NCBI GenBank assembly: GCA_963664875.1
Contig: OY761611.1
Span: forward strand, 1,344,001-1,408,000
Origin: Candidatus Kapaibacterium sp.
Lineage (GTDB): Bacteria > Bacteroidota > Ignavibacteria > Kapaibacteriales > UBA2268
Reading direction: 5' to 3'
DNA: 64,000 nucleotides
The notes beneath the pieces were generated by a model. That model was not told the DNA's origin. It saw only the letters and a program-made list of their open reading frames with translations, and ran no database searches. Below, piece by piece: positions 34,515-51,661 of this stretch. How positions within the stretch are numbered: the stretch's first letter is position 1; each line of letters begins with the position of its first letter. Position numbers and translations under genes: made by a program.

Positions 34515-34664
34515 ATGAGAGCTATATCTAAAAAGATGATATCATCAGTGCAAGATGTGGATGCTGTTGATATATTTCTGCATTTAACAAATCCTAATAA
34601 CAAATGGATTTTCAATTCTTTACCCAATCTTTTAGTACAGAGTAGGAGGCAGCATGGAAAATAA
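34515..34664 (+). CDS. Small ORF (49 aa) coupled to the primase gene
   Basis: AAGGAGG RBS, MRAISKKMISS...QHGK*; overlaps the primase start by 11 nt; below the ORF-track cutoff. Confidence 0.5.
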   Translation: MRAISKKMISSVQDVDAVDIFLHLTNPNNKWIFNSLPNLLVQSRRQHGK

Positions 34665-35601
34665 ATCTTTCAGTAGTAATAGGACTAGTTGTCCTGAATG
34701 CGGAGCAAAAAGGGCATTTGCAGAATATGATGATGGCTCAGGTGGATATTGTCATTCATGTGGTAAAACTGTTATGTATAACTCGACTAAAAAGCAAGGT
34801 AAGCAAATGAAAAAACAACAAGAGAAGAGTCAATTGTTACAAACTATTACTCTTGAGCAATTTAATGAGTTAAGATCATGTGATGATTCAAATTTTAACG
34901 AGTATTTTGGTGAGCTATTTGGTGATGCTTTTAACAAACATTGTAATGATAATTATTTTTTAAGAGCTGATGATTATGGTGCAACAATCTTTACTTTTAT
35001 AGATTCTCAGGGATTTATTAGAAATTTAAAAAGCATGGCATACAAACAAGATGGTCATAGAGATAAGGTGGGATTTGTTCTAAAAATCAAGGAGAAAGAG
35101 ACTACTATACCTGTATTTTATGGATATCGATATGCAAAAAAAGGAAAATACGATATGATTAAATCCACTTCTGTGAAGAAACATTATTCACAGTGCCTGT
35201 TTGGTGAATACTACCTCAATTCACACAACTACATGATTGTAGGAGATCGAACCTATAAGTATGATGACAAGACCCCAGTTATATTATTAGAATCAGAAAA
35301 ATCTGTCTTAATATCTTCATTTCATTATCCATCTGTCATCTTCCTTGCAACAGGTGGAACGAATGGGTTAACAGAAGAAAAAGCGGAAATATTGAAAGAT
35401 AGAATTGTTTATATCATGTTTGACAACGAAGAAAAAGCTCAACTGAGAGCTGAAAAGGCAAAGATTGTTTTGACAGGAATTGCAAAGTCGGTTGATATAA
35501 TTGATATTTTCAAAAATTACAAGGTTGAAGAAGGTTATGATTTAGCTGATATTTTAGAACAACAAGCAATTTTAAGAGGAGAACAGAAAGATGACAAATA
35601 A
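34654..35601 (+). CDS. Primase-like protein (Zn finger + TOPRIM/DUF6371-like)
   Basis: CPECG...CHSCG; QCLFGE, LESEKS, LATGG, FDNE and GYDLAD motifs. Confidence 0.8.
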   Translation: MENKSFSSNRTSCPECGAKRAFAEYDDGSGGYCHSCGKTVMYNSTKKQGKQMKKQQEKSQLLQTITLEQFNELRSCDDSNFNEYFGELFGDAFNKHCNDNYFLRADDYGATIFTFIDSQGFIRNLKSMAYKQDGHRDKVGFVLKIKEKETTIPVFYGYRYAKKGKYDMIKSTSVKKHYSQCLFGEYYLNSHNYMIVGDRTYKYDDKTPVILLESEKSVLISSFHYPSVIFLATGGTNGLTEEKAEILKDRIVYIMFDNEEKAQLRAEKAKIVLTGIAKSVDIIDIFKNYKVEEGYDLADILEQQAILRGEQKDDK

Positions 35602-36652
35602 TTTAAAACCGATAAGAGAATTCAATCTTATTCAAGAGTTGAATAACTATAATCACAAAAAGATTAAACAAAACACAATGAATTTTCGATTGGAACAAGC
35701 TGCTAATCAACCTCAGATGGAAGAATTATTTGGTTCTTATTTACAACGTGGAGAAATTTCAATAATCGCAGGTAACACAGGAGATGGTAAATCCACTTTA
35801 GCAGTTCAAATTGCTGACAGAATCACAAGGCAAAAAGGAATATGGAATGAAGTGAATACGCAAAAATATCCAATAATATACTATGATTTTGAGATGTCAG
35901 ACCAATCATTGCTAAAAAGATATCAATCTTATACTTTCGAATCTAACTTTTATTGTCCTGACGTTAGTGAAATTATTAAGAATTCAAATGGCGTATTTTC
36001 TATAGATACAATCAAGAATGATATCAACACTTTTGATGCTAATATAATCTTTATCGATAATATTACTGCAATGTCGCAAAAATCAACAATTGATCAAGAC
36101 TCTGCAAATAAACTAATGCGTGGATTAAAAACTCTACAAAGTACGTACAATACCACTATTTGTGTGTTAGCTCATGTGCCTAAAATTCCAAGTAATGTTC
36201 CTTTGCATATTAACCATGTCGCAGGGAGTAAAAATATTGTAAATTTTGCAGATAGTGTGCATATAATCGGACAGAGCAATCAATTACCTAATAGACGTTA
36301 TCTGAAGCAAGTTAAAAATCGTAATTCAGAAATGGAATCACAGGTAATGGTTATAGATTTAATCTGCGAAGATTATCTTCATTTTGATTTTATCAAGATG
36401 GATGATGAACGTAATCATATCGATGTTGATACGATTATGGAAGATAATAAGAAAAATAAACATATTGACATTGCTAATGAATTGATTGGTACTGATGCAA
36501 TAAAATACACTGATTTTGTAGATAATTACGCAAAAAAATACAATAAATCGATTGAAACGGGTAAGAAAGCAATTCAATATTTGAAGTTACACAATATAAT
36601 ACAGCAGAACGAATCGAAAGAATGGGAAGTCAATCCTGACTATCTAATTTAG
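35591..36652 (+). CDS. AAA_25/RepA-type replicative helicase
   Basis: Walker A GNTGDGKS, YYDFEM, Walker B IFIDNIT, LAH, AGSK...FADS and KNR motifs. Confidence 0.85.
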   Translation: MTNNLKPIREFNLIQELNNYNHKKIKQNTMNFRLEQAANQPQMEELFGSYLQRGEISIIAGNTGDGKSTLAVQIADRITRQKGIWNEVNTQKYPIIYYDFEMSDQSLLKRYQSYTFESNFYCPDVSEIIKNSNGVFSIDTIKNDINTFDANIIFIDNITAMSQKSTIDQDSANKLMRGLKTLQSTYNTTICVLAHVPKIPSNVPLHINHVAGSKNIVNFADSVHIIGQSNQLPNRRYLKQVKNRNSEMESQVMVIDLICEDYLHFDFIKMDDERNHIDVDTIMEDNKKNKHIDIANELIGTDAIKYTDFVDNYAKKYNKSIETGKKAIQYLKLHNIIQQNESKEWEVNPDYLI

Positions 36653-37864: not shown

Positions 37865-38593
37865 ATGAGAATAGTAGTAGAGTTAGAATCTTCTAATCAT
37901 ATTCTATTACCACATTCTATCAATAGTGTTATACAGTCTTTTTTATATAATGTAGTAAAAGGTGATTCTGAATTTGATGAGATGCACAAAAGTATCAGTT
38001 ATAAAAATTTTACGTTTTCAACGATTCGAGAACGATTCCGAAAAGTAGAAGGTGGAAGACTATATGGAAATTCTATATCTTTTGTCTTCTCAACCAACCA
38101 GCAAACATTAATAAATACATTACTGAACAGTATAATGTTCGCTTCAAATTTAGATTTAGCAGGCAATTCAGTAAGATTCAAATCTGTCTCACCAATTCAG
38201 AAGAAATCCTTTACTACAACCGAGAAAATGAAGACATTAAGTCCAATAACTGTCTACGATGATATTGTGAATTCCGAAGGTAAAAAGTTTAGGAGCTATT
38301 GTTTAGATGTGCATTCTGAAAGATTCACAAGATTACTTCGCAACAATCTGATAAGAAAAGCAAGTAAACTTTATAATTGGGATTTATCGGATTCTGAATT
38401 TGAGATTGAATGCTTATCAAACCCAAAAATTGTCTCTGCGACTTATAAGCATAAGAATAATGTGATTAAAGGCATCGATGCAATATTTAAGCTTACTGGT
38501 GATGAAAGATTGATTCAAGTTGCTTATGAAGTTGGCTTAGGCAGTAAAAATGCTCAGGGTTGGGGTTGTATAGAATTTGCAGGAGAAAAATAA
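37865..38593 (+). CDS. cas6: CRISPR endoribonuclease Cas6
   Basis: YKNFTFS, TLSPI and C-terminal Gly-rich loop GLGSKNAQGWG. Confidence 0.93.
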   Translation: MRIVVELESSNHILLPHSINSVIQSFLYNVVKGDSEFDEMHKSISYKNFTFSTIRERFRKVEGGRLYGNSISFVFSTNQQTLINTLLNSIMFASNLDLAGNSVRFKSVSPIQKKSFTTTEKMKTLSPITVYDDIVNSEGKKFRSYCLDVHSERFTRLLRNNLIRKASKLYNWDLSDSEFEIECLSNPKIVSATYKHKNNVIKGIDAIFKLTGDERLIQVAYEVGLGSKNAQGWGCIEFAGEK

Positions 38594-40467
38594 TGTTTTT
38601 AAATGCTTTATACGAAATTGGTGAATATCATAAAAAAAACATACTTAACAAAGGTGGTCTTCCTGAGCTCACTTTGAAAGAGGTACAATATCTTCATAAA
38701 ACAGGTACATATCAAAAGGTTGTAATTATGAATATACAAAGTTCCAATAGCACAGTATCCTTTTCAACCGAGGAATTAGAATCGACCGGAGATCACTCTC
38801 TACACTATTTATACAAATATCGTAATGGCTCCCAAGCAGGTAACGAATTTTCTTTTACTAACAAAATAAATATACAAAAAGAAAAGGATAAGAATAAAGA
38901 GAAAGCTGAAATCGATTGGAACAAATTCTTCAACTACTATAAAGCTAACAAAAATTCTTGGATTACTTGGTTAGAAGCTTGCATAGCTGAAGAATTTTAT
39001 CAAACAACTCAAAATATATTAAGAGCAATCATTCAAAATATTGAGAATATCAAATCTTATATTGAGACCTTATTTACGAATGATGATACTTTTAAAAAAG
39101 GCTGCATTTTTACGGTAAAATATAACGGTAAATATTTAAACGAAATCAAAGAGTGCGTTGAATGTTTTGACTATTGTGTGCAAAAACACAATAAGTCAGG
39201 AAACACAGAGCCAAATGTTTGCTGCTCTTTTTGCGGAAGTAACCAAAATGTCAGATATGGTATTCCAGAAGCATTCAAATTCGCAACCATAGATAAAGAA
39301 GGATTCGCAACTGACTTCAATGTTGACACAAATAGGGATTATCCAGTTTGTATCGAATGTCGTACAATCTTGACTTCAGGAAGACAATTTATTGATGATA
39401 ATTTGTCTTATTATTTCCACGGCTTAAAATATAAGGTTGTTCCACACTCTGTTTTTAAATCAGAAGTGTTGCTTGACAATATGTTATATAACTTAAAAGA
39501 AGCCAAAAATCCAAATTTATCTCAAAATCACTCTAATTTTATGTCTGATCCTGATGGTATCATTGAAGAAGCTTCTGAACTAAACAATAGTGTATTGTTA
39601 AATTTAGTGTTTTTATCACAGAAAGGCGTCGGTGGTGAACAAATTGATCTACTTATGCAAGATGTACTTCCAACTCGCTTAGCTGCGATAATAAAAGTAA
39701 AACATGATTTAGAAAATATGTACCCCTATAAAACGAAAGATGGTGAAATTAAACATATGCTTTTCAATATGGGCACAATCTTCAATTTTTACCAACATAA
39801 GAAAAGTAAAAATGCACCATTTGATAAATCATTTTTCGAACTTGTGGAAGCTATATTTAAAGGTGGTAAACTTAATAAAGATTTGATTGTCTCTAAGTTC
39901 ATGGATAAAATTCGGGAAGATGTTTATGAACCAGACAAAAAGCACCCCCATAACTACACTAAAGATTCCATAAGAATAATGCAATTCCTATCAAAATTAG
40001 ATATAGTAGATTTCAAATATAAAGGTAAACCTATGAAAGACAATATTTTCAAAGAATATTTTGAGCAAATAGGCATAGTCGATTCTTCATACTTAGCGGG
40101 CGTAATGCTTATCGGAGCCTTAGTAACCAAAGTTCGTATAGTACAGAAAGAAAATCTGGACAATGATCCCTTCAAGAAAAATCTAAAAGGATACAATTTA
40201 AACCGTGATGAGATTATTTTGCTTGCTAATAAAGTAAAAGCGAAGTTAGAAGAGTATAATGCTTTTAAAGGAACTGAAAATATAATTTTTGGAACTGCTT
40301 TTAAGCTTATGATGGATGCAACTCCAGTATCAAATGCCATGTCAAACTGGTATCTGATTGGTGGCATGAGTTTAGAATATGAAATTATGGGCATAGCAAT
40401 CGAATACCTAAAATCGCAAAAACCAAACTCTCAAGCAGAAGAACAAGAAAGCAATGAATCCAATTAA
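38593..40467 (+). CDS. cas8b: Type I-B Cascade large subunit Cas8b (Csh1-like)
   Basis: Start MFLNALYEIG coupled to the cas6 stop; CSFC...FKFATIDKEGF...YPVCIEC Zn motif; lies between cas6 and cas7. Confidence 0.85.
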   Translation: MFLNALYEIGEYHKKNILNKGGLPELTLKEVQYLHKTGTYQKVVIMNIQSSNSTVSFSTEELESTGDHSLHYLYKYRNGSQAGNEFSFTNKINIQKEKDKNKEKAEIDWNKFFNYYKANKNSWITWLEACIAEEFYQTTQNILRAIIQNIENIKSYIETLFTNDDTFKKGCIFTVKYNGKYLNEIKECVECFDYCVQKHNKSGNTEPNVCCSFCGSNQNVRYGIPEAFKFATIDKEGFATDFNVDTNRDYPVCIECRTILTSGRQFIDDNLSYYFHGLKYKVVPHSVFKSEVLLDNMLYNLKEAKNPNLSQNHSNFMSDPDGIIEEASELNNSVLLNLVFLSQKGVGGEQIDLLMQDVLPTRLAAIIKVKHDLENMYPYKTKDGEIKHMLFNMGTIFNFYQHKKSKNAPFDKSFFELVEAIFKGGKLNKDLIVSKFMDKIREDVYEPDKKHPHNYTKDSIRIMQFLSKLDIVDFKYKGKPMKDNIFKEYFEQIGIVDSSYLAGVMLIGALVTKVRIVQKENLDNDPFKKNLKGYNLNRDEIILLANKVKAKLEEYNAFKGTENIIFGTAFKLMMDATPVSNAMSNWYLIGGMSLEYEIMGIAIEYLKSQKPNSQAEEQESNESN

Positions 40468-40485
40468 TAAAGTATAGGCAATAAC

Positions 40486-41439
40486 ATGAGTAATATTAAA
40501 TCTTCAGAAATCATATTTTTATATGACTTAGAAAAATGCAATCCAAATGGTGATCCAATAGCCAACAACTTACCAAGAATAGATGAAGAAACATCAAAAG
40601 TTTATGCAACCGATGTTTTTCTTAAGCATCATATAAGAGAGTACATGTATCAGAATACAATTCCGAAATTAGATGGTAATTTTGACATCTGGGTCAGAGA
40701 TACAAGAGAAGAAAATGGTGGGAAAGTAGTTGATGCAAAGAAGAGATATGAAAGTCTTAATATAAGTGCAAAAGATGATAAAGCTAAAGAAGAATTCTTA
40801 GAAAGATGCCTAGATGCACAAATGTTCGGTGCAGTAGTACCACTAAAAAAGGAAAACTATCATTTAACTGGAGCTTGGCAGTTTATGAATATCAAATCTT
40901 TACATCAAGTAGATGTAATTACAGATAAAGGTATTACTACTTTTGCTTCAGGTGATAATAAATCTCAAGGAACTTTCAGAGAAGATCACTACGTGAATTA
41001 TGCTTTGATGCAATCATATAGCAGAGTAAATGCAAATGCTGCCGAGAAAAATCTATTAAAACAAGAAACTTTAGATGCTGGTTTAGAAGCTATGTGGTAT
41101 GGAATCAAAAATTTAAATACACGTAGTAAATTGGGTCATGATTCTAAGTTACTTTTAGTTGTAGAATACAAAACAAACAATCGTTTTATTGGAAACAAAC
41201 TTAACAATTCCATAACTCTCACACTTAAGGATGGTGTAATCACAGAGAAAGGTATCAGAGCAGGTTCTGATTATAACCTTAATATGGATGCTTTACAAAA
41301 TCTATTAGTATCGAATAAATCTATTATCCACAAAATTAAATTTCACTACGAAGCTCATGATCCTCACGTTTCTTCATTTAAGGATTTTAAAGCTAATTTA
41401 CAAAAAGAAGGTATAGAGATTGAAGATTTAAAATACTAA
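40486..41439 (+). CDS. cas7: Type I-B Cas7 (Csh2)
   Basis: NPNGDP...LPRIDEET...TDVFLKHHIREY, FGAV and TRSKLG motifs. Confidence 0.93.
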   Translation: MSNIKSSEIIFLYDLEKCNPNGDPIANNLPRIDEETSKVYATDVFLKHHIREYMYQNTIPKLDGNFDIWVRDTREENGGKVVDAKKRYESLNISAKDDKAKEEFLERCLDAQMFGAVVPLKKENYHLTGAWQFMNIKSLHQVDVITDKGITTFASGDNKSQGTFREDHYVNYALMQSYSRVNANAAEKNLLKQETLDAGLEAMWYGIKNLNTRSKLGHDSKLLLVVEYKTNNRFIGNKLNNSITLTLKDGVITEKGIRAGSDYNLNMDALQNLLVSNKSIIHKIKFHYEAHDPHVSSFKDFKANLQKEGIEIEDLKY

Positions 41440-41448
41440 GGTGAAAAA

Positions 41449-42156
41449 ATGAAAGTTCTCATTTTCGAAATAAGTGGTGAGTTTGCACATTTCAAACCTT
41501 ATGATACAACTTCAACCAAGCTAAGTTACCCATTCCCAACTCCACCAACTGTTTTAGGAATGATTGGTGCCATTTTAGGTTTGTCAAAGCAAGATCAGCA
41601 GTATCTAAAAATATTGAACGATGCTAATACTAAAGTAGCTGTTTCAATTTTGAACCCAGTCAAAAAGTTACATTGGGGCTTAAATCTTCTAAATACAAAA
41701 GGTAACATTGTTGACTTATCTAACGGTCATACTCAAGTATTGACCGAGTTTATTAAAGATGCTCGTTATAGAATTATTGTGTCAATGGAAAAGCAAGATT
41801 TATATAATTCTCTCAAAGAAAGATTAGAAAAGAAAGAGTCTTATTATGATCTGTGCTTGGGTATCACAGAATGTTTAGCTGACTTTGAATTTGTAGGAGA
41901 ATACGAAGCAAGTCTGAACAAATATAATTCTATCGAAGTAGATTCTGTTATACCCATAGACGAATCAATCGAAAACAAGATAGACTTTACATCAGTACAA
42001 GAAAAAATAACAATGCCAAGAATACCATATAAAATGGAAGTAGGAAGAATTGCATCTTATAGGAATGTACTTGTGAACGAAGGAGCCAAACCAATAGCAA
42101 TAAAAAATATAGAATGTTATACGACTGATGTTTGCAATTTCTTGTTTTTGAATTGA
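41449..42156 (+). CDS. cas5: Type I-B Cas5
   Basis: FEISGEFAHFK...LSYPFPTPPTVLGMIGAILG. Confidence 0.93.
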   Translation: MKVLIFEISGEFAHFKPYDTTSTKLSYPFPTPPTVLGMIGAILGLSKQDQQYLKILNDANTKVAVSILNPVKKLHWGLNLLNTKGNIVDLSNGHTQVLTEFIKDARYRIIVSMEKQDLYNSLKERLEKKESYYDLCLGITECLADFEFVGEYEASLNKYNSIEVDSVIPIDESIENKIDFTSVQEKITMPRIPYKMEVGRIASYRNVLVNEGAKPIAIKNIECYTTDVCNFLFLN

Positions 42157-42157
42157 T

Positions 42158-44494
42158 ATGATTATGTTACTATCTCATCCAGACACTATATTATCAGACC
42201 ACCTCGAAGGAGTGCTGCTCAATTCTGTTCGTATGTACGAAGAAATGAATATCACTTCTTCATATGGTGTTGATTATTTAAAAGTTGTAAAGTTGGTAGC
42301 TTTGTTTCACGATTTCGGGAAGTGTACTAATTATTTCCAAAATTATATTCGTGGAGATAAAAGTGGAAGTTCTCTTTTAAGACAACATTCCATATTAAGT
42401 GCTATTGTAGTTTCACATTTAGTTATATCAGTTGTTGAAAGTAAACATGCAGAAGAACTTTCACTTTATGCTTTTCTCTCAGTATTGTATCATCATGGTA
42501 ATCTTAATAACTTATATAATAAATTGCTTGGAATCAATAGCAATGATACAATTGTATTACTCAGCCAACAAATAAATGCAGTATCCTTTGATTCAGTAAA
42601 CGAATGCTATAATCCACTGCTCAAAGATTACTTATCTATTGATATCACTTTTACGGCTGAAAAGCTGACAGAATATATTGATACTCTAAAATCTTCAATA
42701 CGTAAACTCAACAAAACTTTAAGGAAAATAAAAGAAACAAACTCTTTTGAATCTTATCTGCATTTGATGACATTCTGGTCTTTACTTGTTGATGCAGATA
42801 AAAAACATGCAAACTTCAAAGAGGTATTGCAAAAGCATTCGTCTAAAATTGATACAGATGCTGCTAAAAAGTACATTATGAAATTTCCAAAAGACGAATC
42901 ACCGATGTGTAAACTTAGAACAGAAGCTTTTGAGACAGTTGAACAGAATATTCTAAAATCATCAGACAAAGCTGATATTTTTAGCGTAGAATTGCCTACC
43001 GGAGCAGGAAAGACACTAAACGTTTTGAATGCAGCACTTCGATTGAGAAATAAAAGGTATGATGAAACCGGGAAGTACAAAAAAATTATAAACGGTCTGC
43101 CGTTTTTATCAATCATTGATCAAACAGCAAAAGTCTATAGAGACGTATTTGATTTAGATGACAGCAATTCAGATGTTATGACTGTTCAGCACTCTTTGGC
43201 TGACTATTCCTTATTCAAACAGGGGGATGTCGAATATAAAGATGATTCCAGAGCGGAGATGCTAATCGAAACATGGGAATCTGAGATAATAGTTACCACA
43301 TTTGTGCAAATATTCCATACCTTGTTTACCAATAAAAACGGCAATGCAAGGAAATTCCATACAATATCCAATTCAATTTTAGTATTAGATGAGGTTCAAG
43401 CTATTCCTTCTAAATATCATAAACTTGTAAATGAGATGTTTCAAGCTTTAGTTAAAGTTTACAACACTGATATTATTACAATGACTGCTACTAATATTTA
43501 CGAGTTCGATAATGCAAAACGTTTATGTGATGCTACATTTTATAATGACTTAGATAGAATTGTTTTGAAATATTTTGATGATGTACTAACAGTCGAAGAA
43601 TTCTTTCAAAAGCTTGATTTGCAGGCAGACAAATCTTATATGTTTGTTATGAATACAATCAAAAGTGCTAAAATACTGCACCAATTGCTGTCTGATTCAC
43701 TACAGGAAGAAGTTGCCTTCTTATCGACAGAGATTATTCCATTTCAGAGATTAGGTATCATATCTGATATTAAGAATAAAAAATATAGATTTTTGGTTAC
43801 AACGCAACTTATCGAAGCTGGAGTAGATGTTACATTTGATGTTGTCTATCGTGATATGACCAGAATGGATTCAATTGTGCAAACAGCAGGCAGATGTAAT
43901 AGGCATTACACAGATAAACAAGGAGAAGTAAATGTTATTAAGCTGAAAGACAAAAGAAAAGAGTATGCAGAGTATATTTATGATTCAATGGACTTATTCC
44001 AAACATCTGAAACGCTTAAAACATATCTTGATGGACAGAACATGATTCGAGAATCTAATTTTTACAATCTAATAAAAGACTTTAGTGCAAAACTACAGGC
44101 AAAAACAACAGATTCAAATGCTTATATTGAAGCAGTAAATCAGTTAAAATTTATCAACTCACAGGAAGACAAATATAATATTGCAACATTCAAACTGATA
44201 GATAATTCTGATTATGAGAAAATAGATGTGTTTGTAGAGTATAATCAGGAAGCCGTTGATATTTGGCAAAAGTATATGCAAATCAAGAAAATTGAAAATA
44301 GATTTGACAGGAAACTACAGTTTAAGCTTATTAAAAATATCTTCCAGAAGTATGTGATTAGCGTTTCAAAGCAAAGATATTGTACGGATTCAAATGCAGA
44401 TGGATTATATTATATACCGCAAGGGCAATTAGAATTTTCATATGGGAAGGTCGGTTTCATGGGATTTGGGCTTGAAGCAAATAATATAATTTAG
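42158..44494 (+). CDS. cas3: Cas3 HD nuclease-helicase
   Basis: HDFGK and HHG HD motifs, LPTGAGKT, DEVQ, MTAT and QTAGRCNR. Confidence 0.95.
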   Translation: MIMLLSHPDTILSDHLEGVLLNSVRMYEEMNITSSYGVDYLKVVKLVALFHDFGKCTNYFQNYIRGDKSGSSLLRQHSILSAIVVSHLVISVVESKHAEELSLYAFLSVLYHHGNLNNLYNKLLGINSNDTIVLLSQQINAVSFDSVNECYNPLLKDYLSIDITFTAEKLTEYIDTLKSSIRKLNKTLRKIKETNSFESYLHLMTFWSLLVDADKKHANFKEVLQKHSSKIDTDAAKKYIMKFPKDESPMCKLRTEAFETVEQNILKSSDKADIFSVELPTGAGKTLNVLNAALRLRNKRYDETGKYKKIINGLPFLSIIDQTAKVYRDVFDLDDSNSDVMTVQHSLADYSLFKQGDVEYKDDSRAEMLIETWESEIIVTTFVQIFHTLFTNKNGNARKFHTISNSILVLDEVQAIPSKYHKLVNEMFQALVKVYNTDIITMTATNIYEFDNAKRLCDATFYNDLDRIVLKYFDDVLTVEEFFQKLDLQADKSYMFVMNTIKSAKILHQLLSDSLQEEVAFLSTEIIPFQRLGIISDIKNKKYRFLVTTQLIEAGVDVTFDVVYRDMTRMDSIVQTAGRCNRHYTDKQGEVNVIKLKDKRKEYAEYIYDSMDLFQTSETLKTYLDGQNMIRESNFYNLIKDFSAKLQAKTTDSNAYIEAVNQLKFINSQEDKYNIATFKLIDNSDYEKIDVFVEYNQEAVDIWQKYMQIKKIENRFDRKLQFKLIKNIFQKYVISVSKQRYCTDSNADGLYYIPQGQLEFSYGKVGFMGFGLEANNII

Positions 44495-44620
44495 TCGTCT
44501 GGCTCGTATAATACAAAAATCACTGAACCTCGACGACTTATTTATTGGAGTTTGAGATACTTTTCTAATGCTACGAACGATACGATTTATTAAAATAGCT
44601 TGTTCTTTGAAAATTTGAGG
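44493..44620 (+). promoter_or_regulatory. CRISPR leader
   Basis: AT-rich non-coding region between cas3 and the first repeat; AGTCGTC...GACGACT inverted motif (44493-44538) of the kind seen in I-B leaders. Confidence 0.75.
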
Positions 44621-45244
44621 ATAGAAATACCTGCTATAAGCAGGGATGATTTGTCAGATTGTTCGCCTCTGATGCTGTTAGCTGTATAGAAATACCTGCT
44701 ATAAGCAGGGATGATGGTATATCACGAGTTGGTACACCACCATCGTAGGTATAGAAATACCTGCTATAAGCAGGGATGATGATGCAGTTGATATTGATAT
44801 TGAACCGACAGAGCAAATAGAAATACCTGCTATAAGCAGGGATGATATAGTGGTTTATAACAATGGTGAAAAAGTTACTTTTGAATAGAAATACCTGCTA
44901 TAAGCAGGGATGATTCAATTCTTTCTGGTCTATCTAATCCGAATAATTCTATAGAAATACCTGCTATAAGCAGGGATGATATGTTCTTTATGTACTTCAT
45001 TCCACTTGGAAAGTTCATAGAAATACCTGCTATAAGCAGGGATGATGGATTAAACAAAGCTCTAAAATCGCAAGGTCGTTCAATAGAAATACCTGCTATA
45101 AGCAGGGATGATTTTTCTAATTCTCCTATATAAAAAAAGCGGTCTGTATAGAAATACCTGCTATAAGCAGGGATGATTTAAGTAAGCATACATACTAAGG
45201 CAACCTGCTTCTTGATAGAAATACCTGCTATAAGCAGGGATGAT
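44621..45244 (+). CRISPR. CRISPR block 1: 10 chimeric repeats ATAGAAATACCTGCTATAAGCAGGGATGAT, 9 spacers (35-38 bp)
   Basis: Repeats at 44621, 44686, 44751, 44817, 44885, 44951, 45017, 45083, 45148 and 45215; the last 10 nt equal the IS left end. Confidence 0.97.
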
Positions 45245-46426
45245 TTGTTCTTTGTAAATATCATATAATATAGTAAATTATAGAAAGCCAAACACAAACT
45301 TTTCTAATCTGGGGGGATTTATGGAAAAGCAAACGTTAGTAAATTATCTTGATAAGTTGACAGATAAGCGTCGCAGGGAAGGCACACGCCATAATCAATC
45401 ATTTGTATTATTGCTGGTTTTGATGGCGACTATGAGCGGACAATATGGCTATCGTGGCATAGAAAGATTTATAAAGAAGAATGCCGAAGACATACTGAAA
45501 TATTTAAAGCCTCATAAAGATAGATTACCAACTTACGCAACAATTTTTAGAGTGGTAAATAATATAGATTTTGATGAATTTGCACAGATTTTTAAAGAGT
45601 GGTCAAAAGTTTATGCAAAGCCTCAAAGCGGTGAAATAATCAGTATAGATGGCAAAGCTTTGAAAGGCACATTAGTAGAATACAATTCGAAATACCAGAA
45701 CTTTATAAGCATTGTTTCTGCACATTCTCAATCAAGTAAAATGTCACTAAGTATAAGCAAATATGAGAATAAAAAATCAAGCGAGATAAGCGTAGTTGAA
45801 GAAATGATTAGAGATTTAGAACTGACTGGCGTAGTCTTTACAATGGATGCTTTACACTGTCAAAAAAACTCTAAGAACAATTGTTAGTACTAACAACAAC
45901 TATATTATTTGCGTAAAAAAGAATCAAGGTCGTTTGTACAAAGAACTGGAGAGTTTGAGTTCGAGCTGGTCAACAAAGATCGATTATTATAAAACCGAAG
46001 AAACTAATAGAGACAGACGAGAAACTCGTAAAGTATATGTATATTCATTAAACGATAAAATTAAGAACGAGTGGTCCGGATCACAGCAATTAGTAAAGGT
46101 ACAAAGGATTAGAAAAACAAAACAAATGCAGGAAGTTCATGTACATTATTATTTGAGCAGTCAAGAAAAACCAGCAAAGTATTATATGCAGAGCATACGA
46201 GGACATTGGGGCATTGAAAACCAGCTACATTGGGTAAAGGATGTGGTAATGAAAGAAGATGCTTGGAAAGTGAGAAATACACAAGCAGCTTCAGTCATGA
46301 GTATAATAAAGTCAATTTGTATCAATATTTTTAGGTCAAAGAAGCGTATTGATTGTACCAACTTTTTCTATGAGACTGCCGACAATGTAGAACTATTGGT
46401 GACTTTGTTAGAATGAATCAACCCTG
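45235..46426 (+). mobile_element. ISAs1-family insertion sequence, copy 1 (1192 bp)
   Basis: Terminal IRs CAGGGATGATTTGTTCT and AGAATGAATCAACCCTG (14/17); 10-bp TSD CTGCTATAAG at 45225-45234 and 46427-46436. Confidence 0.95.
45321..46416 (+). CDS. ISAs1 transposase split into two frames at an A7 run
   Basis: ORFs 45321-45887 (IDGKALKG, TMDALHCQK) and 45847-46416 (VKKNQ, RGHWGIENQLHWVKDV). Confidence 0.9.
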
Positions 46427-46965
46427 CTGCTATAAGGGGTTTAAACTAAAAGGCAATAAGCTGTATTTGACGTTAGGACTTGATAGAAATACCTGCTATA
46501 AGGGGTTTAAACTTTGGTAATGATGCTAAGAGCTGCAGCACATCACTAATAGAAATACCTGCTATAAGGGGTTTAAACGAAGGCAGCCATGATGACATGG
46601 TAGATGCGACAACAATAGAAATACCTGCTATAAGGGGTTTAAACTTATTTCACCTCTGTGATAAAATTTTCAGCACTAAGATAGAAATACCTGCTATAAG
46701 GGGTTTAAACAATTCTAATGAATATTCTTTAGCTGTTTCCCGTGCAAATAGAAATACCTGCTATAAGGGGTTTAAACGAAATTAAAGAAAAAAAACTATT
46801 AGATTTTGCTGAATAGAAATACCTGCTATAAGGGGTTTAAACTAGACTTCAACTGAGACATAAACTGAGAAATATTAAATAGAAATACCTGCTATAAGGG
46901 GTTTAAACCATTCATTAAAAACTTACAATAAAAAAGCATGGAAAAATAGAAATACCTGCTATAAG
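46427..46965 (+). CRISPR. CRISPR block 2: canonical repeat ATAGAAATACCTGCTATAAGGGGTTTAAAC, 7 full and 2 partial repeats, 8 spacers
   Basis: Full repeats at 46483, 46549, 46615, 46681, 46748, 46813 and 46879. Confidence 0.97.
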
Positions 46966-48157
46966 CAGGGATGATTTGTTCTTTGTAAATATCATATAAT
47001 ATAGTAAATTATAGAAAGCCAAACACAAACTTTTCTAATCTGGGGGGATTTATGGAAAAGCAAACGTTAGTAAATTATCTTGATAAGTTGACAGATAAGC
47101 GTCGCAGGGAAGGCACACGCCATAATCAATCATTTGTATTATTGCTGGTTTTGATGGCGACTATGAGCGGACAATATGGCTATCGTGGCATAGAAAGATT
47201 TATAAAGAAGAATGCCGAAGACATACTGAAATATTTAAAGCCTCATAAAGATAGATTACCAACTTACGCAACAATTTTTAGAGTGGTAAATAATATAGAT
47301 TTTGATGAATTTGCACAGATTTTTAAAGAGTGGTCAAAAGTTTATGCAAAGCCTCAAAGCGGTGAAATAATCAGTATAGATGGCAAAGCTTTGAAAGGCA
47401 CATTAGTAGAATACAATTCGAAATACCAGAACTTTATAAGCATTGTTTCTGCACATTCTCAATCAAGTAAAATGTCACTAAGTATAAGCAAATATGAGAA
47501 TAAAAAATCAAGCGAGATAAGCGTAGTTGAAGAAATGATTAGAGATTTAGAACTGACTGGCGTAGTCTTTACAATGGATGCTTTACACTGTCAAAAAAAC
47601 TCTAAGAACAATTGTTAGTACTAACAACAACTATATTATTTGCGTAAAAAAGAATCAAGGTCGTTTGTACAAAGAACTGGAGAGTTTGAGTTCGAGCTGG
47701 TCAACAAAGATCGATTATTATAAAACCGAAGAAACTAATAGAGACAGACGAGAAACTCGTAAAGTATATGTATATTCATTAAACGATAAAATTAAGAACG
47801 AGTGGTCCGGATCACAGCAATTAGTAAAGGTACAAAGGATTAGAAAAACAAAACAAATGCAGGAAGTTCATGTACATTATTATTTGAGCAGTCAAGAAAA
47901 ACCAGCAAAGTATTATATGCAGAGCATACGAGGACATTGGGGCATTGAAAACCAGCTACATTGGGTAAAGGATGTGGTAATGAAAGAAGATGCTTGGAAA
48001 GTGAGAAATACACAAGCAGCTTCAGTCATGAGTATAATAAAGTCAATTTGTATCAATATTTTTAGGTCAAAGAAGCGTATTGATTGTACCAACTTTTTCT
48101 ATGAGACTGCCGACAATGTAGAACTATTGGTGACTTTGTTAGAATGAATCAACCCTG
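46966..48157 (+). mobile_element. ISAs1-family insertion sequence, copy 2 (1192 bp, apparently identical to copy 1)
   Basis: Same IRs and length, identical translated ORFs; TSD CTGCTATAAG at 46956-46965 and 48158-48167. Confidence 0.95.
47052..48147 (+). CDS. ISAs1 transposase split into two frames at an A7 run
   Basis: ORFs 47052-47618 and 47578-48147, identical to copy 1. Confidence 0.9.
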
Positions 48158-50490
48158 CTGCTATAAGGGGTTTAAACTTGAGATATTATTGTAAAATTGT
48201 GATTATTTGATTTCATAGAAATACCTGCTATAAGGGGTTTAAACGAGTGCAAAGTGTTCCATTCTTGTCGAGCCATACGGAATAGAAATACCTGCTATAA
48301 GGGGTTTAAACCTAATATATATTTTCATTATTCACTCCTAAATTGATAATAGAAATACCTGCTATAAGGGGTTTAAACACTACTGTGTTGAAAGATATGT
48401 TAAATGCCATATCAGATAGAAATACCTGCTATAAGGGGTTTAAACATATATTCAGTAAGAAGTTTTAAACAAGACCCATTAATAGAAATACCTGCTATAA
48501 GGGGTTTAAACTTTATAATGTCGTAATCTTTGTTAGCCTGAATGTTAATAGAAATACCTGCTATAAGGGGTTTAAACTCTGCTTCCTTATGTGATTTGCG
48601 GGTAGTACTACTATAGAAATACCTGCTATAAGGGGTTTAAACGCAAAGTTGTGCATTTTAGAAGCGACTGGCAACTCATAGAAATACCTGCTATAAGGGG
48701 TTTAAACTCGTTTTGATGCCGTTTACAACTGTGCCGATGCCTGCATAGAAATACCTGCTATAAGGGGTTTAAACGCAGCTGCAACCGGGTCATCGAGCGA
48801 TACATTGAATATAGAAATACCTGCTATAAGGGGTTTAAACATGCTTTTTGATATATTATTTGGCATTTGCAATTGAATAGAAATACCTGCTATAAGGGGT
48901 TTAAACAAGTTTGGAGTTTTCAATTTCATGTCTTCGAACAAATAGAAATACCTGCTATAAGGGGTTTAAACAAATTGATTTGAACGGCGTTGCATTCAGC
49001 ACGTCAAATAGAAATACCTGCTATAAGGGGTTTAAACACGTTTGCGGCTCTAATGCCTGCTTTTAAAAAGCTCAATAGAAATACCTGCTATAAGGGGTTT
49101 AAACGTAGATTATACTTCGGAGGAATCAGTAGAATTGATAATAGAAATACCTGCTATAAGGGGTTTAAACTTAACGAATTGGTCATTAACATAACCGATT
49201 GTTTGCGGATAGAAATACCTGCTATAAGGGGTTTAAACTGTTGAAGAGGAATGGAAGCATATTACTTGTCCTCGATAGAAATACCTGCTATAAGGGGTTT
49301 AAACGAATCAATCTCAATAAACAATATATTACTTTTAGTAATAGAAATACCTGCTATAAGGGGTTTAAACTGTTGAAGAGGAATGGAAGCATATTACTTG
49401 TCCTCGATAGAAATACCTGCTATAAGGGGTTTAAACAAAGCTGTGCCGGGGTTCGCTTAAATCTCTGATAAATAGAAATACCTGCTATAAGGGGTTTAAA
49501 CATCACTAATGAAGTCAGATTGAAGGTAGCTCGTTCGATAGAAATACCTGCTATAAGGGGTTTAAACTTGGCTGAACCGCTACGAGGCAATGGTATTGAT
49601 TTAATAGAAATACCTGCTATAAGGGGTTTAAACATGAATGCCGAGGCAGTAGAGGGGCGTGCAAGGCGTATAGAAATACCTGCTATAAGGGGTTTAAACG
49701 ACGTTCTGATATTAAGTCTTTGTCCAATCTGTACGAATAGAAATACCTGCTATAAGGGGTTTAAACAATATTGTTTTGTTAAAAGCTATCTCGAAAACTA
49801 TAATAGAAATACCTGCTATAAGGGGTTTAAACTCGTTTTTACCTGTTTTTTCTTTTGTTCCATTTTGATAGAAATACCTGCTATAAGGGGTTTAAACGTA
49901 ACTCCGTGCCAATCTCACTAAATATATTTGCATATAGAAATACCTGCTATAAGGGGTTTAAACTCAAAACTCTTAATCATATCAATACCGACTTCACTTA
50001 TAGAAATACCTGCTATAAGGGGTTTAAACCAATATTTCGAGCAGATACGAAACGATGCCGAGTTTATAGAAATACCTGCTATAAGGGGTTTAAACTTGTC
50101 AGCTATTGACAAAATGCTCAATGAAGCAGAATAGAAATACCTGCTATAAGGGGTTTAAACAATTCTGAAACATATTTTGCAATTTTTTTTAGTTTTATAG
50201 AAATACCTGCTATAAGGGGTTTAAACTTGACTACATTGTTTTCTTTACATATTCTAAATACCTATAGAAATACCTGCTATAAGTGGTTTAAACATCGAAA
50301 CTTACGGCAATGTAGCGACTGCTCTGAATATAGAAATACCTGCTATAAGGGGTTTAAACACAGTTAAAAGGTTTACTTGTCATGTGATAATAGAATAGAA
50401 ATACCTGCTATAAGGGGTTTAAATTGTGCTGACTGTATCGAATTTACGGTAGAAAATGAAATAGAAATACCTGCTATAAGGAGTTTAATT
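48158..50490 (+). CRISPR. CRISPR block 3: canonical repeat, 1 partial and 35 full repeats, 35 spacers, degenerate trailer end
   Basis: Repeats every ~65-68 bp from 48215 to 50461; variants at 50264, 50395 and 50461 mark the old end. Confidence 0.97.
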
Positions 50491-50543
50491 GAATATCGGT
50501 GGTGCAATTTATTAAGGAGAAAATACCACATTTATTTCAGTGC

Positions 50544-50635
50544 AGTAAGCCACTAATTTTGACAAAAATACAAAATTTATGTTTTTTATCTTCAGCATTT
50601 GTAGTCAATTTTATGCAAGACTAGTTAGCAAATGG
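50544..50635 (+). repeat. Imperfect direct repeat, right flank of the CRISPR-Cas module
   Basis: Matches 37396-37489. Confidence 0.8.
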
Positions 50636-50707
50636 AAGGTCAATTCTCGGAGGGAATTGTCAAAAGAATCAAGCACTATTGTTTTACTTCTGCTATTTTT
50701 TTAAATT

Positions 50708-51661
50708 ATGATAATATTTAGTCAACTAAAAACGGATTTCATCATGTCAAAAAATACAATTCCATCAAATTCAGCAATTGATTTCCAACATCTCTTCAAC
50801 GAGTTGGTGTATCATTACTTCCCTACTCCAATGATTAATTATCATCTTGAGCGATTTGAAACAAAAGATGATAAGATCCTTTATTTAAAAGAAATGCAAA
50901 TTCGTTTTTATCATCTAACACTAATAAAATGTGACTATTGCGAACAGACAAAAGATATACCATTACTTCATACAGAAGCACGACCGAATTTCCATGATTA
51001 TCGTATAAGTATCAGTAATGTTAAAGTTGATGATAACTTCAAGCACTACATCTACGGACCACTCAAATTCAATGATGTAGAAGCTACAAAAGTATTTAAC
51101 AGATTTGATATACTTCTAAACAGAACACTCATGCTGTTCAAACCTGATCCGACGTTTTTAACGAACTGGGAAGAAGTAAAGGGACATCTGCAAAATATTA
51201 GTTCTGTCAAGAACAAAAAGAAGTATTTGCTGCAATTAAACTCAAACTTCAACAACCACCCTCATTATTGGGGCACAAGAGAAGAACAGGAATCTTTCAA
51301 GAAATTGCTTTCTGCAAAATATCAAAAACTTAAGCAGATAGTATTTGAAGCAAGTGCAGAACCAACATTCAAAAAACAAGAAAAAGTTGAATCCCAAAAT
51401 TTGGAAAAGCAGAGAGCTGAACAAACAACAAGTTCTGACAGAGCAAAACAAAAAACATCTTTTGCAGAGAACAATTCCAATGACTTCATAAAAATAGAGG
51501 AAGTAACGCAAATACTAAAAATTTGCAAACCTACAGTTTACAGCTATCGCAATAAAGGTTTGATACAGTCATACAAAATGGGTAGAAATGTCTATTATAA
51601 AAGAAGTGAAATCTTTGAAGCACTAAATAATGGCAAAGTAAAGTATGGTAAAACTAAGTAA
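50708..51661 (+). CDS. Protein with C-terminal excisionase-like HTH_17 domain
   Basis: FIKIEEVTQILKICKPTVYSYRNKGLIQSYKMGRNVYYKRSEI at the C-terminus; adjacent to the att site. Confidence 0.75.
   Translation: MIIFSQLKTDFIMSKNTIPSNSAIDFQHLFNELVYHYFPTPMINYHLERFETKDDKILYLKEMQIRFYHLTLIKCDYCEQTKDIPLLHTEARPNFHDYRISISNVKVDDNFKHYIYGPLKFNDVEATKVFNRFDILLNRTLMLFKPDPTFLTNWEEVKGHLQNISSVKNKKKYLLQLNSNFNNHPHYWGTREEQESFKKLLSAKYQKLKQIVFEASAEPTFKKQEKVESQNLEKQRAEQTTSSDRAKQKTSFAENNSNDFIKIEEVTQILKICKPTVYSYRNKGLIQSYKMGRNVYYKRSEIFEALNNGKVKYGKTK

Follow-up and report, generated by a model that had tools for sequence, protein, structure and literature searches.

In the type I-B system of Haloarcula hispanica, two motifs in the repeat's central part (positions 11-15 and 18-22) are both needed, and duplication of the repeat begins at the leader junction and ends, independently of sequence, at a set spacing from the second of these motifs (PMC4872114). 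In the portion of that study on which we draw, mutants at repeat positions 21-25, 26-30 or 23-30 still expand their arrays and copy the mutated distal sequence (PMC4872114), and the mutants Rm21-25 and Rm26-30 showed a consistent 30-bp duplication (Wang et al., 2016, PMC4872114). For type I-E of Escherichia coli, two molecular rulers have been described (Goren et al., 2016, PMC5039180; likewise used here in part).

The array reported here (array 1) lies in a window of 64,000 nt, which is the whole stretch of DNA that was analyzed, in a genome consisting of one contig of 3.83 Mb with 36% G+C. IS insertions are known to interrupt CRISPR arrays, and the same has happened here, where two copies of an ISAs1-family element are found within the array. 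A sequence-only reading of the window had called attention to the leader end of this array, where the repeats end in sequence from the element. The coordinates of the features are given in Table 1.

Table 1. Features of the type I-B locus and array 1, in window coordinates.
Feature	Position	Strand	Description
Effector operon	37865-44494	+	cas6 37865-38593, cas8b 38560-40467, cas7 40486-41439, cas5 41449-42156, cas3 42158-44494
CRISPR leader	44495-44620	+	cas3 stop codon to repeat 1, 126 nt
CRISPR array, type I-B	44621-50490	+	53 repeats, leader adjoining cas3
Ten hybrid repeats and nine spacers	44621-45244	+	repeat positions 1-20 + IS positions 1-10
ISAs1-family IS, copy 1	45235-46426	+	1192 bp; repeat 10 runs directly into the element
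Displaced repeat positions 11-30	46427-46446	+	target-site duplication CTGCTATAAG (46427-46436), then GGGTTTAAAC (46437-46446)
Canonical section between the two IS copies	46447-46965	+	8 spacers, 7 canonical repeats, repeat 18 positions 1-20 (46946-46965)
ISAs1-family IS, copy 2	46966-48157	+	identical to copy 1; same repeat position, in repeat 18; repeat-finder family D5
Older canonical section	48178-50490	+	35 repeats, first at 48215

The locus and its leader-side repeats

The operon upstream of the array encodes a type I-B effector. Cas8b matched TIGR02556 with 183.5 bits (NCBIfam cut-off 156.95) and Pfam Cas_TM1802 with an E-value of 2.5e-80; with the Csh1 model it reached 92.1 bits, below the cut-off of 104.05. 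Cas7/Csh2 (TIGR02590, 188.4 bits, cut-off 171.55), Cas5b (TIGR02592, 126.7 bits, cut-off 97) and Cas6 (TIGR01877, 126.9 bits, cut-off 58.65) also matched, and HD and helicase (core) domains are present in Cas3. The markers of type I-B, namely Cas8b, Cas7, Cas5 and Cas6 of the I-B kind and Cas3, are all found. The genes cas4, cas1 and cas2 are absent from the locus, and only 126 nt lie between cas3 and repeat 1. The locus is an I-B effector module with an array and without adaptation genes of its own. Its flanking genes are mobile-element-like, with DUF6371 and an AAA_25/DnaB-like ATPase upstream (34654-36652) and an HTH_17 protein downstream (50708-51661).

Positions 1-20 of the repeat are constant in all 53 repeats. 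A pattern search with these 20 nt gave 53 matches without mismatch, all on the + strand, where 0.01 would be expected. The canonical repeat, ATAGAAATACCTGCTATAAGGGGTTTAAAC, with the distal end ...GGGTTTAAAC, is seen in 39 of the 53 repeats, and three are point variants (50264, 50395 and 50461). A hybrid 30-mer, ATAGAAATACCTGCTATAAGCAGGGATGAT, consisting of repeat positions 1-20 followed by CAGGGATGAT, is found in the other 11, which are the ten on the leader side and repeat 18 at 46946. Repeat 18 is hybrid only as the second junction between repeat and IS. With that junction excepted, every leader-side repeat is hybrid (10/10) and no IS-distal repeat is. The ten begin at 44621, 44686, 44751, 44817, 44885, 44951, 45017, 45083, 45148 and 45215, and the last of them (45215-45244) shares its final 10 nt with the IS. 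The conserved unit is exactly 30 bp long in all ten copies, with variable bases on either side. Direct reading of the sequence, a repeat finder (family D4) and the pattern search gave concordant results for this block. Thus the sequence-only reading was right that the ten leader-proximal repeats are hybrids of exactly 30 bp. The second IS copy, in repeat 18, and the lack of cas1, cas2 and cas4 at the locus go beyond that reading. A search of Rfam over 44300-50700 returned neither a CRISPR-DR nor any other family.

The nine spacers within the hybrid block are all unique and 35-38 nt long, as in the remaining array, and the rest of the genome contains no match to any of them longer than 20 nt. 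This excludes that the block arose by duplication of existing units. Their origin as foreign DNA is putative, as no protospacer, and hence no PAM, was located in phage and plasmid collections and 130 family genomes. Matches of the hybrid block to Bacillus phages in the phage collection were at chance level (E 0.2-0.6), and the plasmid collection gave no match. The best foreign match among the 130 family genomes (34 nt, 89%) straddles a spacer-repeat boundary, and a match of 41 nt (86%) within the own genome is weak and AT-rich; neither was accepted as a protospacer. The canonical block 48158-50490 had no match in the phage collection either. Elsewhere in array 1, spacers 34 and 36 are identical (49239-49274 and 49371-49406) and stand one unit apart; duplicated units that adjoin each other are also seen in array 2 of the same genome (G000:C1 about 2166600-2166730) and in the array of a congener (L036 5320-5451).

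Array polarity is clear, with the leader and cas operon on the left and degenerate repeats on the right, where the repeat at 50395 carries one mismatch and that at 50461 three. The congener, G004, has a homologous I-B effector locus (L036, G004:C1:3600-12800) whose Cas8b is 59% identical and whose layout is the same: cas6 to cas3, a 126-nt leader and an array with degenerate repeats at the far end. No cas1, cas2 or cas4 adjoins this locus, and a Cas1 of the same type is encoded about 50 kb away. In the cas3-leader-repeat region the G004 leader aligns without gaps to that of array 1, with which it shares the conserved repeat-proximal block TTGTTCTTTGAAAATTTG.GG. It is followed directly by a canonical repeat where array 1 has its first hybrid one, and the position of the leader-repeat junction is thus common to both arrays. 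The G004 repeat, ATAGAAATACCTAATTTAAGGGGTTTAAAT, matches the array 1 repeat at 26 of 30 positions. It is identical at positions 18-29, which shows the canonical distal third to be ancestral.

The ISAs1-family element

Both IS copies in array 1 sit between repeat positions 20 and 21 and are flanked by the 10-bp duplication CTGCTATAAG. Behind each of them repeat positions 11-30 reappear (46427-46446 and 48158-48177); the second of these remnants starts with the duplication that flanks copy 2 (48158-48167). The sequence-only reading had placed the displaced repeat end beyond the IS after the target-site duplication, and this is where we located it. The reading had also identified CAGGGATGAT as the first 10 nt of the ISAs1 element at 45235. 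The genome contains seven copies of this IS, six at 100% identity and one at 99.6% (5 differences), and all seven begin with CAGGGATGAT, including four outside any CRISPR array. The hybrid repeat ends in the intrinsic left terminus of the IS, which supplies its last 10 nt.

Elements of the ISAs1 family, as collected in ISfinder, have terminal inverted repeats that start with CAGGG, and their target duplications measure about 8-10 bp. The element has an ISAs1-type DDE transposase, and its ends and duplications are those of the family. Its termini, defined by the ends that the copies have in common, are CAGGGATGATTTGTTCT at the left side and, at the right side, CAGGGTTGATTCATTCT in reverse complement; the inverted ends agree at 14 of 17 positions. 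The target duplication is an exact 10 bp in four of the seven copies and 9 bp in one; in the other two the flanks agree at 8 of 10 positions, with an AA vs TT difference. At the copies at G000:C1:2078469 and 2173057 the flanks are CCTCAAGAGG and CCTCTTGAGG, which are reverse complements of each other and not exact direct repeats. This suggests insertion at a near-palindromic site or later recombination between copies.

The transposase is encoded in two frames, 45321-45887 and 45847-46416 in copy 1, that are split at an A7 run in all seven copies; in copy 2 the overlapping frames span 47052-48147. The NCBIfam model NF033564 (cut-off 70 bits) matches both halves, with profile positions 1-151 in the first frame (122.7 bits) and 148-314 in the second (141.4 bits). 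The transposase is split although six copies are identical and so seemingly recently active. Its expression may depend on a +1 shift or on transcriptional slippage.

The five insertion sites outside array 1 are either similar to CCTCAAGAGG followed by GG or read CCTGAATGGG followed by GG. The element prefers the target C(C/T)(T/G)...(A/G)G and then GG, and the CRISPR repeat offers one. With this preference, two insertions at the same repeat position need no special mechanism, and the second identical IS in repeat 18 points to target preference. Copy 5 (G000:C1:2173057-2174248; L004 about 1057-2248) lies inside a spacer of array 2. The interrupted spacer contains the favored target in a CCCCTCAAGAGGGG-like form, and the same motif is found at the insertion sites near 2078 kb and 2086 kb.

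Two likenesses between the IS and other parts of the array were set aside. The leader block TTGTTCTTTGAAAAT (44599-44613) resembles IS positions 11-25, TTGTTCTTTGTAAAT (45245-45259); by a rough estimate about 0.3 such matches are expected over all registers, and the likeness is probably due to chance. The genome has 30 occurrences of the 10-mer TTGTTCTTTG, and 7 of them fall in IS copies. The start of spacer 6 (44981-45000) agrees with IS positions 11-30 at 14 of 20 positions, which is probably chance as well; a similar stretch is found in an unrelated region of G125 (L027 about 2040-2075). A scan for sigma-70 promoters was uninformative (6 sites vs 9.9 expected).

Origin of the hybrid block and source of the integrase

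We propose, with a probability of about 0.85, that the IS struck the then-first repeat of the array and that exactly 30 bp, counted from the leader junction, were duplicated at each of nine subsequent integrations, whatever the distal sequence. The ISAs1-family element would have entered the repeat that was closest to the leader at the time, between its positions 20 and 21, and repeat positions 11-20 would thereby have been duplicated. The integrase, likely supplied in trans by the module of a second locus (see below), would have kept using the intact leader-repeat junction, and its second cut, 30 bp downstream, would now have separated IS position 10 from position 11. A 30-bp unit of repeat positions 1-20 and IS positions 1-10 would then have been copied at every one of the nine integrations. 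The IS would have stayed whole and been displaced stepwise from the leader, with the old repeat end left behind it.

This is the only simple account of the anatomy, and in this respect the sequence-only reading, which had the IS enter the leader-proximal repeat and the integrase go on copying 30 bp, is supported. The duplicated unit starts at the leader-repeat junction and has a fixed length despite IS sequence at positions 21-30. The reading had further held that the 30 bp are measured from the leader. The fixed 30-bp unit agrees with this and fits equally an anchor inside repeat positions 1-20, from which the leader is inseparable here. We infer that the anchor lies in the leader or in positions 1-20 and, from one array state, the order of events. 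Of the anchor motif known from H. hispanica (positions 18-22), the hybrid repeat retains positions 18-20 and has CA instead of GG at 21-22; with the IS end, a G-run stands 3 nt downstream of the old one. Despite the relocated G-run none of the ten hybrid repeats is 32-33 bp long. That the G-run moved by 3 nt and the repeat did not lengthen argues against the G-run as the anchor here and leaves the leader or positions 1-20.

The same anatomy could in principle have come about without any acquisition, if the IS had entered repeat 10 of an existing array and gene conversion, or recombination between repeats, had then carried the junction sequence into the nine repeats upstream. Repeats do recombine, and the duplicated spacers in both arrays indicate that recombination or re-acquisition occurs. 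Nine short tracts would be needed, each exchanging exactly the last 10 nt and touching no spacer, and they would have affected all upstream repeats and no downstream one; moreover, recombination between repeats deletes or duplicates units and does not rewrite one end of them. We therefore regard conversion as very improbable.

Since the outer 10 nt of the left inverted repeat of the IS are present in every hybrid repeat, it could also be asked whether the transposase, and not Cas1-Cas2, made the hybrid units or helped to cut them. The sequence-only reading had listed such help in cutting as an alternative, and it finds no support. Transposition does not yield unique inserts of 35-38 nt with a period of 65-68 bp, no such structures accompany the five IS copies outside array 1, and the transposase frame is split in every copy (7/7). 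A role of the transposase is hardly credible on these grounds.

Two identical IS copies among 53 repeats are difficult to assemble, and the order of units is beyond what short-read contigs can tell, which raises the question of an assembly artefact. Parts of the stretch are contained in seven public runs from four samples and two studies, perhaps including the source of the genome, and the contigs of four runs were compared with it. Logan contigs from the four samples reproduce hybrid-flanked spacer units, the leader-hybrid junction and the IS junctions with 0 differences. Among the pieces listed they cover at least six of the nine hybrid spacer units, and junctions of IS copy 2 are found in contigs of runs X4 and X7. 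One sample has no cover over 44922-45158, to which we attach no evidential weight. Nine different spacers with a hybrid repeat on both sides are not producible by collapse or misjoining, and together with the contigs this makes an artefact exceedingly unlikely. A junction of leader and canonical repeat was not seen in the contigs of the public runs; this carries little weight, as contigs break at repeats. No RNA run was listed among the public runs that hold the stretch.

A pre-insertion array, or one with fewer hybrid units, was not found in relatives, contig collections or public-run contigs. A search of 61 genomes (the own genome and 60 relatives) with the first 20 nt of the repeat allowed up to two mismatches; only single matches with 1-2 mismatches were found elsewhere, in 5 genomes; the one in relative L006 is not an array. 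The genome and metagenome contig collections were scanned for the exact 20-mer only, and the records of the window's own genome were perhaps excluded. Each gave one lone match, in an unrelated MAG and in a metagenome contig that holds no array, respectively.

The only Cas1 and Cas2 matches in the whole genome, one of each, lie at 2155.7-2156.9 kb, ~770 kb from array 1. They belong to a second type I locus, whose genes run cas6, unassigned gene, cas3, unassigned gene, cas7-like, cas4, cas1, cas2, and its Cas1 is of I-B type (TIGR03641, 430.5 bits). As the array 1 locus is devoid of cas1, cas2 and cas4 and the only copies are this distant, integration would take place in trans, and the integrase is most probably the Cas4-Cas1b-Cas2 of the second locus. 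The adjoining array 2, outside the window, has 273 repeats (G000:C1:2157125-2176350). Repeats are 30 bp in both arrays and spacers about 34-38 nt. Read from its leader, the last base of the array 2 repeat changes blockwise (135 T, 102 A, 9 G, 24 T, 1 G and 2 T, in this order), which shows templated copying of the distal repeat end in a point-mutation version. Two old spacers of array 1 (50161-50263) recur in array 2 (2169571-2169606 and 2163632-2163667), where orientation and 5' boundary are unchanged, at 35/35 and 34/36 nt. This fits one adaptation machinery and one PAM rule.

The link of array 1 to this distant module is circumstantial: the two arrays have dissimilar repeats, and between the leaders we found a 17-nt local match that was reached by 23 of 1000 shuffles (weak). 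These dissimilarities would fit the same mechanism with another integrase, a cas4-cas1-cas2 module once present at the array 1 locus or on a plasmid and since lost. Many I-B loci do carry cas4-cas1-cas2 between cas3 and the array. The G004 locus, with its same-type Cas1 about 50 kb off, shares the arrangement without adaptation genes beside the array, so the lack is older than the IS insertion. Six 100% identical IS copies argue for a recent insertion, and the two spacers with the same boundaries are common to both arrays. Thus we find a lost module unlikely and favor the second locus as the source.

Possible consequences for crRNAs and relation to known systems

The exchange of the distal third changes what would be the 5' handle of the crRNA. 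The last 8 nt of the repeat are GTTTAAAC in the canonical and GGGATGAT in the hybrid form, with 2/8 positions kept and 6/8 changed, positions -3 and -6 among the changed ones. In H. hispanica the handle requires its last 6 nt, among which an important role falls to positions -2, -3 and -6, according to the part of PMC6582329 used here. With six of eight handle nucleotides changed, the nine hybrid-repeat crRNAs are, by this analogy, probably poorly processed or poorly loaded, and the spacers of the hybrid block may be of no use. Between the leader and the 43 older spacers there now stand one or two IS copies. Writing to the array may thus continue with little of its content being read. If the crRNAs are useless, retention of nine hybrid units would need frequent neutral acquisition, a point that weighs against the proposed course of events.

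The hybrid repeat can also form a 6-bp hairpin (CCUGCU/AGCAGG, -8.7 kcal/mol vs -4.1 for the canonical repeat) that is made by the junction of target duplication and IS end; 3/10 hybrid copies have a terminator-like score on the + strand. It is conceivable, if unlikely, that the hybrid is a working new repeat whose hairpin permits crRNA processing and loading, and that the nine spacers were kept by selection and not by neutral accumulation. An IS terminus would then have become a functional CRISPR repeat in one step. The route to a new repeat that the sequence-only reading put forward requires the hybrid to give a working crRNA, which is doubtful because the 5' handle is changed.

Under the reading that we prefer, 30 bp copied from the leader junction whatever the distal sequence, an array without its own cas1-cas2 keeps growing even though its new entries are probably unreadable, which separates the writing of memory from its use. 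It also means that the terminus of a mobile element can become fixed in a CRISPR repeat, one way for an abrupt repeat change. The case suggests a database screen for repeats with a 3' part identical to the terminus of a neighboring IS. In a literature search by full text, reports of IS in arrays describe disruption or truncation and, in the text so covered, none has an IS terminus in a propagated repeat.

In calling the array a natural record of the ruler mechanism, the sequence-only reading described the structure correctly. The mechanism itself is not new, as it had already been demonstrated experimentally in type I-B in the part of PMC4872114 considered here; what the case adds is a natural example with an IS as the mutagen, persistence over nine integrations, a bacterial host and an integrase encoded elsewhere. 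Within the same genome, the point-variant blocks of array 2 resemble array 1 in that all later repeats take over what has changed in the leader-proximal one; they are single-base changes, whereas in array 1 a third of the repeat was replaced by IS sequence. As in E. coli type I-E, to judge from the part of PMC5039180 consulted, repeat length appears to be set by distance from anchor motifs and not by boundary recognition. The E. coli work concerns another subtype, another integrase and other host-factor needs, and designed mutants instead of a natural variant.

The H. hispanica system, as far as the text of PMC4872114 drawn on here describes it, is among the closest known. Array 1 shares with it the 30-bp repeat and the assignment to I-B, by the Csh-type Cas7, Cas8b and the 'HMARI' model for the Cas1 of the second locus. 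It differs from the H. hispanica mutants in being natural and made in one step by an IS, with positions 21-30 wholly replaced, in belonging to a bacterium with nine integrations and an integrase encoded elsewhere, and in having a new G-run 3 nt downstream with no longer repeat. Taken together, array 1 is an unplanned in vivo counterpart of the repeat-mutant ruler experiments, in which a third of the repeat was swapped and 30 bp were still measured nine times.
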